Below are positions 1,437 to 63,379 of a stretch of DNA of 64,000 nucleotides, piece by piece. Under the pieces are notes generated by a model. That model had not been told where the DNA came from. It saw nothing but the letters and a program-made list of their open reading frames with translations, and ran no database searches. The stretch's first letter is position 1; the number at the start of each line of letters is the position of its first letter. Source of the stretch: Nannocystis pusilla (GTDB lineage Bacteria; Myxococcota_A; Polyangia; Nannocystales; Nannocystaceae); contig NZ_JAIRAU010000002.1 in the NCBI RefSeq assembly GCF_020073745.1, forward strand, positions 81,694 through 145,693, written 5' to 3'. The position numbers were made by a program, and so were the translations under genes.

Positions 1437-2166
1437 CCAGCTCAGGTCCAATTTGTCCCTGCGGCCAGGTCTGTTCGGACATGTCCTCGCGGTCATGGTC
1501 GTCATGACCGGTTCGATCGACCAGGCGGCCGCGGCCGACCCGCTGCCGGTGGCCGCCGCGCCGGCGCCGGCCGCGCTGACGCTCGAGCAGCTGCTCGGCC
1601 GGTTCGCCGGGATGAGCGGGCTGCAGGCGGCGTTCCGCGAGGAGAAGCGGATGGCCCTGCTGGCGGCGCCGCTGGTCAACGAGGGCACGATCTACTTCGT
1701 GCCGGGCGGCAAGAAGTCGCGCCTGGCCCGGCACACGGCCAGGCCGGCGCGCTCGGTGGTGGTGATCGACGGCTCGGCGCTGCGGATGGCCGACGACGCC
1801 GGGCGCGAGGAGATCTCGCTCGACAAGAGCCCGGCGGTGCGGCTGTTCGTCGACTCGTTCGTCAAGATCTTCGCCGGCGACGGCGAGGCGCTGGCGACGA
1901 TGTACGCGATGGAGCTCAAGTCCGAGGGCCAGCGCTGGACGCTGAAGCTGAAGCCGAAGCTGGCGCCGCTCGACAAGCTGATCGAGCGGGTCGAGATCGC
2001 CGGCGAGGGGGTCGTGATCGCGACGATGCGCGTGGTCGAGATCGGCGGCGACGAGGCGGTCACCACGTTCTCGGCCGTCGACCCGCAGCGCAAGTTCTCC
2101 GCCGAGGAGCAGGCGACGCTGTTCAGCCTGCCGCCGAAGCCGGCCGCGCCGCCGGCGGGCCGCTGA
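1411..2166 (+). CDS. LolA-like outer-membrane lipoprotein carrier-like protein (aryl-polyene cluster type); start uncertain (1381-1504)
   Basis: ORF 1381-2166. Hydrophobic signal-like segment LFGHVLAVMVVMTGSIDQAAAA precedes a beta-rich body. Position between thioesterase and MMPL exporter matches APE/flexirubin cluster order. Confidence 0.55.
   Translation: MRCSSTWCSQLRSNLSLRPGLFGHVLAVMVVMTGSIDQAAAADPLPVAAAPAPAALTLEQLLGRFAGMSGLQAAFREEKRMALLAAPLVNEGTIYFVPGGKKSRLARHTARPARSVVVIDGSALRMADDAGREEISLDKSPAVRLFVDSFVKIFAGDGEALATMYAMELKSEGQRWTLKLKPKLAPLDKLIERVEIAGEGVVIATMRVVEIGGDEAVTTFSAVDPQRKFSAEEQATLFSLPPKPAAPPAGR
1454..1490. repeat. TGTCC-N4-GGACA palindromic element (GGACATGTCC junction) over the LolA-like gene start region
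   Basis: ATTTGTCCCTGCGGCCAGGTCTGTTCGGACATGTCC; two 14-bp units in phase. Confidence 0.6.
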
Positions 2167-2187
2167 CCCGGCGGCCCGCGGCGGACG

Positions 2188-2257
2188 GACCTGCCTGATA
2201 CGACCTGGCTGATGGGACCTGCTTGATGGGACCTGCTTGATGGAACCTGGTCGATCA
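2188..2257. repeat. 5 tandem copies of a 14-bp direct repeat GACCTG(C/G)(C/T)TGAT(A/G)G filling the LolA-like/MMPL intergenic space and overlapping the MMPL start
   Basis: gacctgcctgatac gacctggctgatgg gacctgcttgatgg gacctgcttgatgg aacctggtcgatca read directly from the sequence. Confidence 0.85.
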
Positions 2258-4627
2258 GACAGGGCGAGCGTGTGGCGGGCAGGGCTCGGCGCGGCGCTGG
2301 TGGCCGGGTTGGCGGCGTTCTGCGCGCTGCGCCTGCAGGTGGTCACCGACATCACGGCGTTCATGGCCGACGTCGCCGACCCCAAGCTGGCGGCGCTGTC
2401 GCGCGCGATGGCCGGCTCGGAGCTGACGCGCACGCTGGTGCTGTCGATCAGCGACGAGCGCGGCGAGCCCGACGTCGCCATCGCCGGGGCGCAGGCGCTG
2501 GCCGACCGGCTGCAGGCCCGCCCCGAGGTGGCGTGGCTGCGCACCGGGCCGGGCGAGCTGCACGCCGAGGCGATCCACAACCTGTACTACCCGCGGCGGT
2601 TCTTCCTCCTGGCCGACGAGACAGGTGGCCTCCAGGACAGGTTGTCCGACGACGGGCTGCGGGCCGCCGCGCGCGAGCTGCGGCGCCAGCTCGGCCTGCC
2701 GACGTCGGGGGTGATCAAGCAGATCGCGCCGGCCGACCCGCTGCTGGCCTATCCGGCCCAGCTGCGCCGGCTCGAGGCGGCCCAGGGCGGCGGGGTCGGG
2801 CTGCGCGACGGGCACTTCGTGGCCGACGACCAGCACGCGCTGGTGATGCTGGCGACCCGCAGCTCGCCGTTCGACGCCGCCGACCAGGCGCCGCTGCAGG
2901 CGGCGATCGAGGCGGCGTTCGCCGAGATCGACGCCCAGTCGGGCGGGCGCCTGGTGCTCGAGCAGTCGGGCGTGGCCCGCTTCGCGCTGGCCGCCGAGAC
3001 CAGCATGCGCGAGGACATCGGCCGGATCTCGACCGTCTCGCTGATCGGCATCGTCGCGCTGTTCCTGCTGATGTTCCGCTCGCCGCGGCTGGTGCTGCTG
3101 TCGCTGGCGCCGCTGGTGGCGGGCGTCACGGCGGCGCTGGCGGCCTGCCTGGCGCTGTTCGGGTCGGTCCACGGGCTGACGCTGGCGTTCGGGGCGACGC
3201 TGATCGGGGTGTGCATCGACTACTCGGTGCACCTGTTCAACCACCACATGCTCGACCCGCCGCGCGGCGGCCCGCGGCAGAGCGCGCGGCGGATCTGGCC
3301 GGGCCTGTCGCTCGGGGCGCTGACGACGGTGGCGGGCTTCGCCGGGCTGGCGTGGACCAGCTTCCCCGGGCTGCGCGAGGTGGCGCTGTTCGCCTCGATC
3401 GGGGTGCTGGTGGCCGCCCTGGCGACGCGCTACTGGCTACCTGAACTTTTGCCCATGTCCCCGAAGCCAGGGTGGATCCAGCGCCGGGCGGCGGCCGGGC
3501 TGGCGCGGATGGTGGCGGCGATGCGACGGCGGCGGCCGGCGGTCGCGGTGCTGCCGGCGGCGGCGCTCGGGCTGTGCGTGGTCGGGCTGCCGCGCATCGA
3601 GTTCTCCGACGACGTGCGCCGGTTGACGGCGCTCGACCCGGAGATGGTGGCGGAGGACGAGCGGGTGCGGGCGCGGGTGTCGCGGATGGACGGCGGGCGC
3701 TTCGTGGTCGCGTTCGGGGCCGACGAGGAGGCGGCGCTGGCCGGTAACGACGCGGTCGCGGTCCGCCTGCGCGCGGCCCAGGCCGCCGGCGAGGTCGAGG
3801 CGTTCCGCAGCCTGCACGCGCTGGTGTGGTCGGAGCGGCTGCAGCGCGACAACGCGGCGGCCTTGGCCGATCCGGGCCTGCCGGCCCGCCTCGACGCGGC
3901 GTTCGTGGCCGAGGGCTTCCGCGCCGGCTCGTTCGCCAAGTTCTTTTCGGACATGTCCCAGGGGCCAGATCCGATGCGGCCGGCCGACCTGGCCGCGACG
4001 CCGCTGGCCGAGGCGGCGCGGACGTTCCGCGCCGACATCGAGGGCGGCGAGGTCGCGCTGGTGACGCTGCTGCGCGGGGTCGGCGACGTCGCGGCGCTGC
4101 AGGCCCGCCTCGCCGACCTGCCCGACGTGCGCTACTTCGACCAGCAGGGCATGTTGCAGGCGGCGTTCGCCCGCTACCGCGCGCGCACGCTCGAGCTGGT
4201 GGTGTTCGGCCTGCTGGCGATGTTCACGACGGTGTGGCTGCGCTACCGCCGGCTCAAGCTGGCGCTGGCGGCGTTCGCCCCGGCGGTGCTGGCGGCCGCG
4301 ACGGCGCTGGCGCTGATGACCCTGAGCGGGGCGACGATCGGGATCCTCCACGCGGTCGCGCTGCTGCTGGTGCTCTGCATGGGCGTCGACTACGGCGTGT
4401 TCCTGGCCGAGAGCCGGCACGACCCGCGGGGCTTCGACGCGACGGTGCTGAGCGTGCTGCTGGCCTGTCTGACCACGGTGCTGGCGTTCGGGCTGCTGGC
4501 GATGTCGGCCAGCCCGGCGCTGCAGGCGATCGGCGACACGGTCGGCCTCGGGGTGCTGCTCAGCCTCGTGCTGGCGCCGTCCGCCCTGGTGCTGGCGGGC
4601 GCGGGCGAGGGGAAGGACCACGGATGA
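2240..4627 (+). CDS. MMPL-family RND-type exporter (predicted pigment/lipid exporter)
   Basis: About 795 aa with two blocks of multiple TM helices separated by soluble loops, as in MMPL/RND transporters. ATG 2240 (TTG 2237 alternative); stop TGA 4625-4627 overlaps the next start. Confidence 0.8.
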   Translation: MEPGRSDRASVWRAGLGAALVAGLAAFCALRLQVVTDITAFMADVADPKLAALSRAMAGSELTRTLVLSISDERGEPDVAIAGAQALADRLQARPEVAWLRTGPGELHAEAIHNLYYPRRFFLLADETGGLQDRLSDDGLRAAARELRRQLGLPTSGVIKQIAPADPLLAYPAQLRRLEAAQGGGVGLRDGHFVADDQHALVMLATRSSPFDAADQAPLQAAIEAAFAEIDAQSGGRLVLEQSGVARFALAAETSMREDIGRISTVSLIGIVALFLLMFRSPRLVLLSLAPLVAGVTAALAACLALFGSVHGLTLAFGATLIGVCIDYSVHLFNHHMLDPPRGGPRQSARRIWPGLSLGALTTVAGFAGLAWTSFPGLREVALFASIGVLVAALATRYWLPELLPMSPKPGWIQRRAAAGLARMVAAMRRRRPAVAVLPAAALGLCVVGLPRIEFSDDVRRLTALDPEMVAEDERVRARVSRMDGGRFVVAFGADEEAALAGNDAVAVRLRAAQAAGEVEAFRSLHALVWSERLQRDNAAALADPGLPARLDAAFVAEGFRAGSFAKFFSDMSQGPDPMRPADLAATPLAEAARTFRADIEGGEVALVTLLRGVGDVAALQARLADLPDVRYFDQQGMLQAAFARYRARTLELVVFGLLAMFTTVWLRYRRLKLALAAFAPAVLAAATALALMTLSGATIGILHAVALLLVLCMGVDYGVFLAESRHDPRGFDATVLSVLLACLTTVLAFGLLAMSASPALQAIGDTVGLGVLLSLVLAPSALVLAGAGEGKDHG
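3949..3967. repeat. TGTCC-N4-GGACA element inside the MMPL CDS, in frame (FFSDMSQGP)
   Basis: GGACATGTCCCAGGGGCCA within a predicted periplasmic loop. Confidence 0.5.
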
Positions 4628-63289: not shown

Positions 63290-63302
63290 GTTCCCTCCCC
63301 AC

Positions 63303-63343
63303 CAGACCGCCCGGGCAGATCTGGCGACCTGCCCGGGCGGTTG
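63303..63343. terminator. perfect 13-bp-stem GC-rich hairpin downstream of the PSCyt1 lipoprotein gene
   Basis: ACCGCCCGGGCAG-ATCTGGCGACC-TGCCCGGGCGGTT. Confidence 0.5.
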
Positions 63344-63356
63344 CCTGTCTGCTCCA

Positions 63357-63379
63357 GCATATGTCCGAAAGGACAGAGC
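63357..63379. repeat. TGTCC-GAAA-GGACA palindrome
   Basis: GCATATGTCCGAAAGGACAGAGC. Confidence 0.8.

Follow-up and report, generated by a model that had tools for sequence, protein, structure and literature searches.

The stretch of DNA analysed here (the window) comprises 64,000 nucleotides of the Nannocystis pusilla contig NZ_JAIRAU010000002.1 (positions 81,694–145,693), with a G+C content of 73% and a myxobacterial gene content. The protein encoded at 16102–17157 matches a protein listed at NCBI under N. pusilla with 100% identity. Dispersed through it is a family of short palindromic repeats, found past stop codons, in the spacers between genes and, more sparsely, inside coding sequence. 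The family was noticed in a reading of the letters without database searches (the sequence-only reading) as a 14-bp hairpin unit, TGTCC-N4-GGACA, at about 40 loci. That count is borne out, with 40 matches at up to one mismatch in the window against 1.58 expected from 100 dinucleotide shuffles. Exact matches (TGTCCNNNNGGACA) number 15 against 0.05 expected, the 10-mer GGACATGTCC at up to one mismatch 17 against 1.66, and CATG-N10-CATG pairs 24 against 0.65.

The family is specific to its lineage. Across ~200 kb of Nannocystis DNA CATG-N10-CATG occurs 70 times, the perfect 14-mer 36 times and GGACATGTCC 29 times, whereas 638 kb of other myxobacterial DNA above 68% G+C, used as controls, hold one, two and none, respectively. 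As the sequence-only reading supposed, no earlier description was found in the searchable literature, where GGACATGTCC matches only p53 papers and searches on Nannocystis or myxobacterial repeats, repetitive extragenic palindromic (REP) elements, REP-associated tyrosine transposases (RAYTs) and hairpins gave nothing relevant. No Rfam family matches at gathering score across the whole window. That these counts reflect chance, base composition or codon usage has a negligible probability. The preference for the codons GTC and GAC does make part of the motif likelier in V-P-x-D peptides, but none of the 100 dinucleotide shuffles and none of 500 synonymous-codon shuffles reach the observed numbers, and the contrast with the control DNA points the same way.

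The units are ordered on a strict register. Distances from one CATG to the next peak only at 14 (24 pairs), 28 (12) and 42 bp (7), with no pairs at 13 bp and one at 15 bp. A single 14-bp register holds every half-site spacing observed, namely GGACA-0-TGTCC, TGTCC-4-GGACA, GGACA-9-GGACA and GGACA-14-TGTCC. The unit profile, (a/g)aGGACATGTCC(t)n, is roughly symmetric, and a minor variant, GGGCATGCCC, is found at 4637–4682 and 52177–52208. Given this register of CATG palindromes, TGTCC-N4-GGACA arises between adjacent units. The 14-bp hairpin and the CATG-centred 10-bp palindrome with a 4-nt spacer are therefore geometrically equivalent descriptions of the same lattice, of which the basic unit is better described as the CATG-centred palindrome on its register than as an isolated hairpin. 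Loops are highly diverse, with 39 distinct sequences among 62 units. Spacers of neighbouring units also differ within arrays, which indicates that the arrays are not recent slippage copies. The longer subfamily unit proposed by the sequence-only reading, TCATGGCGAAAAGGACATGTCC, is present in exact form at 38488 and 38537 and with three mismatches at 20379 and 52009.

The arrays and sites of the window are as follows.

1454–1497: three units in the 58-nt spacer of two co-directional genes, reaching into the start of a LolA-like gene.
3949–3967: an exact GGACATGTCC and a one-mismatch 14-mer within an MMPL gene (peptide FSDMSQG).
4632–4687: four lattice units of the GGGCATG variant, starting 9 nt past the MMPL stop, in that part of the overlapping DUF3261 lipoprotein gene which encodes the signal peptide.
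5887–5939: three clustered hairpin units, the last of them 2 nt from the stop of the minus-strand gene 5942–6862; the two full units (5911–5939) are 15 nt apart, and 5889–5904 carries the halves in reverse order (GAGACA-GAGA-TGTCTC).
8445–8458: an exact 14-mer within a VWA-domain gene.
10769–10945: GGAACATGTCGCAAGGGACA three times, borne by a 101-bp tandem module past the stop of the VWA gene.
11023–11083: an array whose five units are in exact 14-bp phase, with z = -5.8 for its predicted RNA fold.
12500–12518: a two-unit site in the spacer upstream of a gene starting near 12616.
16614–16627: an exact 14-mer in a gene for a hypothetical membrane protein (invariant peptide AVPKDMP).
17049–17062: another exact 14-mer of the membrane-protein gene, encoding HVPMDR; homologues without indel.
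17183–17297: units filling the convergent spacer between stops at 17160 (plus strand) and 17300 (minus strand), as three sub-arrays in phases 0, 13 and 12.
20368–20409: three units, one a variant of the longer subfamily, 42 nt past the stop of a short threonyl-tRNA synthetase (ThrRS) paralogue.
23210–23223: a single exact unit with a TTCG loop, between two M16 peptidase genes.
24629–24649: two units in a convergent spacer, beginning 1 nt past the TGA at 24625–24627; all orthologous spacers carry an array of differing composition.
26308–26326: a two-unit site between a histidine-kinase stop and an OmpA-like gene, identical in the relative L001.
28947–28990: three units in exact phase, with 3 nt between the last of them and the stop of the minus-strand gene 28994–30019; the lattice is retained in five other species with different spacers.
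35057–35070: a single one-mismatch unit in the spacer past a radical-SAM gene; the unit is perfect in L001.
35228–35246: GGACATGTCC with degenerate half-sites on its flanks; L001 matches the consensus in a different half.
36795–36813: an exact 14-mer and an exact 10-mer in the HTTM-domain gene, encoding YVRWDMS, kept in six of seven species without indel.
38461–38558: six lattice units, two of them exact TCATGGCGAAAAGGACATGTCC, in the spacer past the HTTM gene; hardly alignable to L001.
40554–40571: two lattice units in a convergent spacer, at the left edge of a strain-specific island and also present in L001.
40675–40688: a single exact unit in the same convergent spacer.
52021–52075: an array downstream of the minus-strand gene 52204–53055, in which two 14-mers and one 10-mer match exactly.
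52135–52208: six lattice units, some of them of the GGGCATGCCC variant, directly adjoining the stop of the same gene.
58208–58299: three exact 14-mers, spaced at 39 bp, in the low-complexity sequence that links the kinase and WD40 domains of one gene (peptides AVPGD, AVPGD and PVPRD).
63362–63375: one exact unit, its loop GAAA, 72 nt past the stop at 63289.

Lone one-mismatch matches in genes, such as those at 2626, 15409, 29900 and 44915, are probably background, and the pair at 54549–54566 within overlapping coding ends looks like chance. Measured against this catalogue, the tiling in exact 14-bp phase that the sequence-only reading described holds at 28947–28990; at 17182–17301 the three sub-arrays are shifted by one base each and only 17240–17297 is in exact phase. 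The dense arrays at 10769–11088, 38461–38558 and 52021–52208 are real, and the cluster at 5887–5939 needs the correction given above. Units directly past stop codons were rightly placed at 24629, 28990, 5939 and 17297, with gaps of 1–3 nt.

Placement at gene ends and copies in coding sequence

Genes were called by third-position G+C, with calls that agree with the annotated gene sets of the relatives L095–L097, and placement densities were taken from seven Nannocystis sequences. Convergent spacers are richest in units (13.7 per kb, 18 of 25 occupied), followed by co-directional spacers (7.2 per kb, 33 of 72 occupied), where the units are shifted toward the upstream stop codon. Divergent spacers hold 0.94 units per kb (2 of 18 occupied) and coding sequence 0.47 per kb. 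A unit lies within 150 nt past the stop in 17 of the 44 genes of the window (~40%), and across all sequences the first unit begins no more than 10 nt from the stop in 17 of 74 cases. With its stop-codon adjacency, tandem arrays and density in convergent spacers, this placement is REP-like, as had been proposed, and the reverse of a promoter-operator distribution.

That distribution bears directly on the possibility that the units are operators of one transcription factor regulon, which is highly improbable. The 5-N4-5 palindrome resembles FNR-type sites in its architecture. ATGT-N8-ACAT, the PadR-family operator sequence contained in CATGTCC-N4-GGACATG, occurs 48 times in the Nannocystis set against 3 in the controls. 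However, a promoter-operator regulon is ruled out by the richness of convergent and the poverty of divergent spacers; units past the stops of ~40% of genes, arrays of up to six units and rapid turnover between species also stand against it. The sequence-only reading had itself named base composition and promoter-only operators as competing accounts of the motif, and the frequency proves far above composition and the distribution the opposite of promoter-only.

The same reading held that units had invaded open reading frames (ORFs) in the manner of Rickettsia palindromic elements (RPEs). This was rejected, as the three testable coding copies lie in conserved peptides and add no residues. The copy at 36795 shows no indel relative to six orthologues, and those at 16614 and 17049 (AVPKDMP and VPMD) show none in 13 homologues of the membrane protein. 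The three copies arose through substitution, by synonymous codon choice, not insertion. A search of the protein database with the kinase linker (57900–58700) gave no homologue, only one unrelated WD40 match, and the copies at 58208–58299 may stem from either insertion or codon choice.

Coding copies are nonetheless far in excess of a codon-aware null, with seven exact units against 0.17 expected from synonymous-codon shuffling, a number that none of the 500 shuffles reach. They need rare T-ending codons; GCT makes up 1.7% of alanine codons, and T-ending codons 3% overall. At the 16614 copy GCT or ACT before GTC is retained in seven of seven orthologues, down to 51% protein identity. In the lattice at 4637–4682, where the ATG of the DUF3261 gene overlaps the MMPL stop (ATGA), L099 retains the positions and L097 some of them, by use of the rare codons CAT and TAT, while the peptide changes. 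The excess over the shuffles and the conservation of rare synonymous codons, and of the lattice through changes of peptide, show that selection or drive acts on the nucleotides.

Writing of a motif into coding sequence at the level of codons is typical of DNA uptake sequences (DUS) and uptake signal sequences (USS). It may be that the family is such a 'self' signal, like Neisseria DUS or Pasteurellaceae USS, with preferential uptake and recombination spreading the motif, also into coding DNA, and paired copies coming to lie past genes. The use of rare synonymous codons, the lineage-specific variants (GGACATGTCC versus GGGCATGCCC) and the enrichment past genes are consistent with this. However, known uptake sequences are non-palindromic and without a fixed register, and coding density is 0.47 per kb against 7–14 in 3' spacers. 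Single coding copies are also conserved in place across deep divergence, and this same-site conservation points to a local role. An uptake signal is accordingly considered very unlikely.

Occurrence among relatives and evolution of the arrays

The analysis covered ~430 kb of Nannocystaceae DNA. Loci carrying a vault-like gene show how far the family extends. In six of six Nannocystis species these loci hold 5–11 lattice pairs per 22 kb, and the other 73 loci, including those of Enhygromyxa, Plesiocystis and many metagenome-assembled Polyangia, are nearly all without them. The family is present at lower density in more distant Nannocystaceae, as seen in loci fetched via a second gene; L099 uses mainly the GGGCATGCCC variant, and units are also present in L100, L022 and L006. 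Matches in viral contigs to GGACATGTCC-N4-GGACATG were considered and set aside as chance, since the 14 found are single, in low-GC contigs and without a lattice. Per 100 kb, the Nannocystis DNA (~200 kb in all) holds ~35 lattice pairs and 18 perfect 14-mers. With genomes of 11–13 Mb, a fair extrapolation would give several thousand units per Nannocystis genome, marking roughly 40% of gene ends, in agreement with the 'thousands per genome' of the sequence-only reading.

Every species bears arrays in the orthologous spacers, and the number of units, their arrangement and the spacer sequences vary. Unit number and spacers are quick to change from species to species, whereas the register and the CATG core persist. 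Compared with the closest relative, L001 (94% identity), the site at 26308 is identical, that at 28947 keeps its register with many spacer changes, and that at 38461–38558 can hardly be aligned. In three close pairs identity is 87–91% at CATG, a figure biased by unit selection, 64–80% at GGA/TCC and 50–66% at spacer positions, against 84% in other spacer DNA. No indels of 14-bp or 28-bp units were seen between close relatives, where differences are substitutions or 60–105-bp modules. Arrays grow through tandem modules of 60–105 bp with one unit each.

These patterns invite the alternative of a non-autonomous mobile DNA, spread by a RAYT or other nuclease recognising the hairpin and CATG. Judging from the sequence, insertion of TGTCC-N4-GGACA into CA^TG would restore CATG on both sides, such that the 14-bp register would build itself and its strictness be accounted for. 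A mobile unit also fits the presence of arrays in the same spacers of every species with differing content, their divergence in excess of the surrounding spacer DNA, the subfamilies of identical longer sequence and the growth by tandem modules. However, unit-length presence/absence differences are missing between close relatives, and the diversity of loops argues against recent copying from a few masters. The coding copies arose by substitution, and the GTAG head typical of REPs is missing. No transposase turned up in the DNA examined, nor a transposase domain among the 30 window proteins scanned, which is weak evidence as no genome-wide transposase search was made. Taken together, spread as a mobile unit is judged improbable, though to a lesser degree than an uptake signal.

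Several further observations concern the arrays and their spacers. Tandem modules of 85–105 bp with one unit each are found at 10701–10890 in the window, 17050–17220 in L095, 17520–17760 in L004 and 17590–17760 in L002, with module sequences that are not the same from one species to the next, a pattern suggesting local duplication promoted by the units. In N. radixulma an extra 1.4-kb segment with one ORF (L001 2545–3975, opposite window 24683–24695) is inserted ~35 nt downstream of the two-unit array past the stop at 24627. L096 carries an ankyrin-repeat gene in the spacer between the ThrRS paralogue and a methyltransferase gene. In the window, ~7 kb at 40430–47443, of lower G+C (0.65–0.70) and with five minus-strand ORFs, has no counterpart in any of the six Nannocystis relatives; their DNA picks up again at 47443. 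This segment sits in a convergent spacer with repeat units. Its ORFs have no Pfam or PHROG matches, and at its left edge the window lacks the body of a small gene that L001 has (19854–20276). Array-bearing spacers seem to be places of gene gain and loss.

Other genes of the window are of separate interest. The vault-like gene (30699–33305) encodes a bacterial homologue of the eukaryotic major vault protein with MVP shoulder, vault repeat and SPFH domains, and adjoins the radical-SAM gene 33492–34820. It is 91–97% identical in Nannocystis radixulma, exedens, punicea, bainbridge and pusilla, with relatives at 55–69% identity in many phyla including Myxococcota, Bacteroidota, Sericytochromatia, Chloroflexota and Planctomycetota. 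The ThrRS-like protein (19105–20325) has 406 residues with catalytic and anticodon-binding domains only. It is flanked by FAD-dependent halogenase-like and O-methyltransferase genes and may be a resistance or biosynthetic paralogue, not a housekeeping enzyme. Two genes at 11288–13671 are rich in CGG repeats (11629–11991) and score poorly with the G+C-based gene caller; the ALK_LTK_GRD glycine-rich domain is found in their orthologues in L095–L099. Tandem repeats also occur within coding sequence, of 102 bp at 54671–55441 in a WG-repeat protein and of 105 bp at 39832–40084 in a ParA/TPR protein; neither is related to the palindromic family.

DNA-level and RNA-level readings

The explanation favoured here, with a confidence somewhat short of even, is that the units form a Nannocystaceae-specific short palindromic DNA family of the REP and bacterial interspersed mosaic element (BIME) type, read as double-stranded DNA by a putative symmetric protein. 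The unit is the CATG-centred palindrome (a)GGACATGTCC(t), with its minor GGGCATGCCC variant, on the strict 14-bp register. The putative protein, probably dimeric and sequence-specific, would bind as neighbouring copies at 14-bp intervals. Maintenance of the sites at transcription-unit ends may be due to selection or to a drive tied to this protein; there they would be needed as a topological or transcriptional barrier or at least be tolerated. Hairpins in 3' untranslated RNA would then be a by-product that may add protection of 3' ends.

The principal alternative is an RNA role, in which CAUGUCC-N4-GGACAUG and hairpins between units past stops would block 3' exonucleases or help to end transcription. 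This is possible if somewhat doubtful. Units start 1–10 nt past the stop in the 17 of 74 cases above, and their density is highest in convergent and lowest in divergent spacers; being palindromic, RNA hairpins would serve both directions between convergent genes. Intrinsic terminators of hairpin and T-run have no consensus match at an array or gene end in 10–30 kb. Canonical terminators thus being missing at gene ends, another 3' signal is plausible. Against this, no T-runs follow the arrays, and the conserved array at the overlapping ATGA junction lies inside an operon, where termination is unlikely.

The geometry of the lattice is also difficult to explain at the RNA level. Tandem hairpins could do without a zero-length linker kept exactly, yet 13-bp and 15-bp distances hardly occur, and the contiguous 10-bp palindrome cannot fold on itself and is without an RNA rationale. 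Past the GDH-like gene CATG-N10-CATG is kept in L003, L004, L007 and the window while would-be stem bases change, so that the CATG spacing outlives the stem at orthologous sites. Tested against column composition within units and across spacers, pairing is not in excess at seven of eight pairs, with weak covariation at the remaining one (p ~0.04), and perfect halves co-occur no more than expected. Double-mismatch 14-mers are paired-complementary in 13% of Nannocystis cases and 15% of controls, a comparison dominated by background palindromes and thus uninformative. When unit profiles are sorted by transcript strand, an asymmetry in plus-strand genes is lacking for minus-strand genes, leaving no consistent asymmetry. 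For the proposal of the sequence-only reading that the hairpins may stabilise RNA 3' ends, neither consistent pairing covariation nor transcript-strand asymmetry was found.

A number of observations nevertheless weigh against reading the family at the DNA level. Would-be pairs in which both bases are non-consensus are still complementary in 13 of 26 cases. Predicted folds are stabler than shuffles (z -1.5 to -5.8), with stems of 13–15 bp between units, and with 3'-end placement and such hairpins an RNA role fits equally well. UUCG loops in spacers favour the sense strand by 6 to 1, three of the six being tandem copies, and G.U-compatible single mismatches favour it by 19 to 7. The latter split is as strong when sorted by plus strand (19 to 6), such that a plus-strand C-to-T mutation bias explains the sense-strand excess equally well. 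Dimers 14 bp apart would lie 120 degrees apart on the helix, which is unusual for cooperative binding, and the reader protein is itself putative. Arrays also seem to diverge faster than other spacer DNA (50–66% vs 84%), a gap inflated by repeat misalignment, and faster divergence fits turnover or mobility better than simple purifying selection.

The DNA–protein, RNA-hairpin and mobile-unit readings are, by analogy with REP elements, mutually compatible. A bolder proposal, which must be regarded as unlikely, is that the lattice is a dedicated 'end-of-gene' code. A putative Nannocystaceae protein would either polymerise along it in 14-bp steps, to insulate or terminate, or be a nuclease or transposase inserting 14-nt hairpins at CA^TG, by a mechanism apart from REP-RAYT systems, uptake sequences and intrinsic terminators.

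Significance and comparison with known systems

If the counts extrapolate to several thousand units, the family is a major unannotated feature of Nannocystis genomes. Its strict register, double palindrome and rare-codon conservation make the question of DNA-level versus RNA-level reading, debated for REPs, testable for repeats at gene ends. In practical terms, the motif marks metagenome contigs as Nannocystaceae, and it aids the placing of gene 3' ends in a genome of 73% G+C whose genes are difficult to call. The arrays are also likely hotspots of spacer rearrangement, which matters for the engineering of biosynthetic clusters in these natural-product producers.

REP and BIME elements of Enterobacteria and Pseudomonas, including the RAYT-linked REPINs, offer the closest comparison in that they are short, imperfect extragenic palindromes with copy numbers from hundreds to thousands. 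They too lie past genes and in convergent spacers, form mosaics and hairpins and are lineage-specific. In E. coli REPs are also bound by DNA-level proteins (gyrase and IHF). The Nannocystis unit differs in its length of 14 bp, against 20–40 nt, and in having two overlapping palindromes on a strict 14-bp register. It has a CATG core, and the GTAG/GTGG head of REPs is missing from its profile. Nannocystis copies are further written into coding sequence by codon choice, and covariation of the stem was not found.

Neisseria have pairs of DUS at terminators, and the NIME/dRS3 repeats. DUS are likewise genus-specific motifs, of 10–12 bp at about one per kb, with inverted copies past genes and others within them, and the intergenic mosaics are highly variable. 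In contrast to the Nannocystis family, which forms arrays of up to six units, DUS are non-palindromic and have no fixed register. Cyanobacterial HIP1 (GCGATCGC) is a lineage-specific, over-represented short palindrome of coding and non-coding DNA whose function is unexplained, but it is not arrayed and has no 3'-end bias. STRR heptamers form short tandem intergenic arrays of non-palindromic units. RPEs share the occurrence of a palindromic repeat in frame within ORFs; however, these are insertions of 100–150 bp that add residues, while the three Nannocystis coding copies tested add none. A model for the reading of a 14-bp lattice is offered by the operator arrays of ribbon-helix-helix repressors (MetJ metboxes and omega heptads), in which short, often palindromic boxes abut in exact register and dimers sit side by side. 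Those arrays are few promoter sites per genome, whereas the Nannocystis units probably number in the thousands and lie at gene ends.

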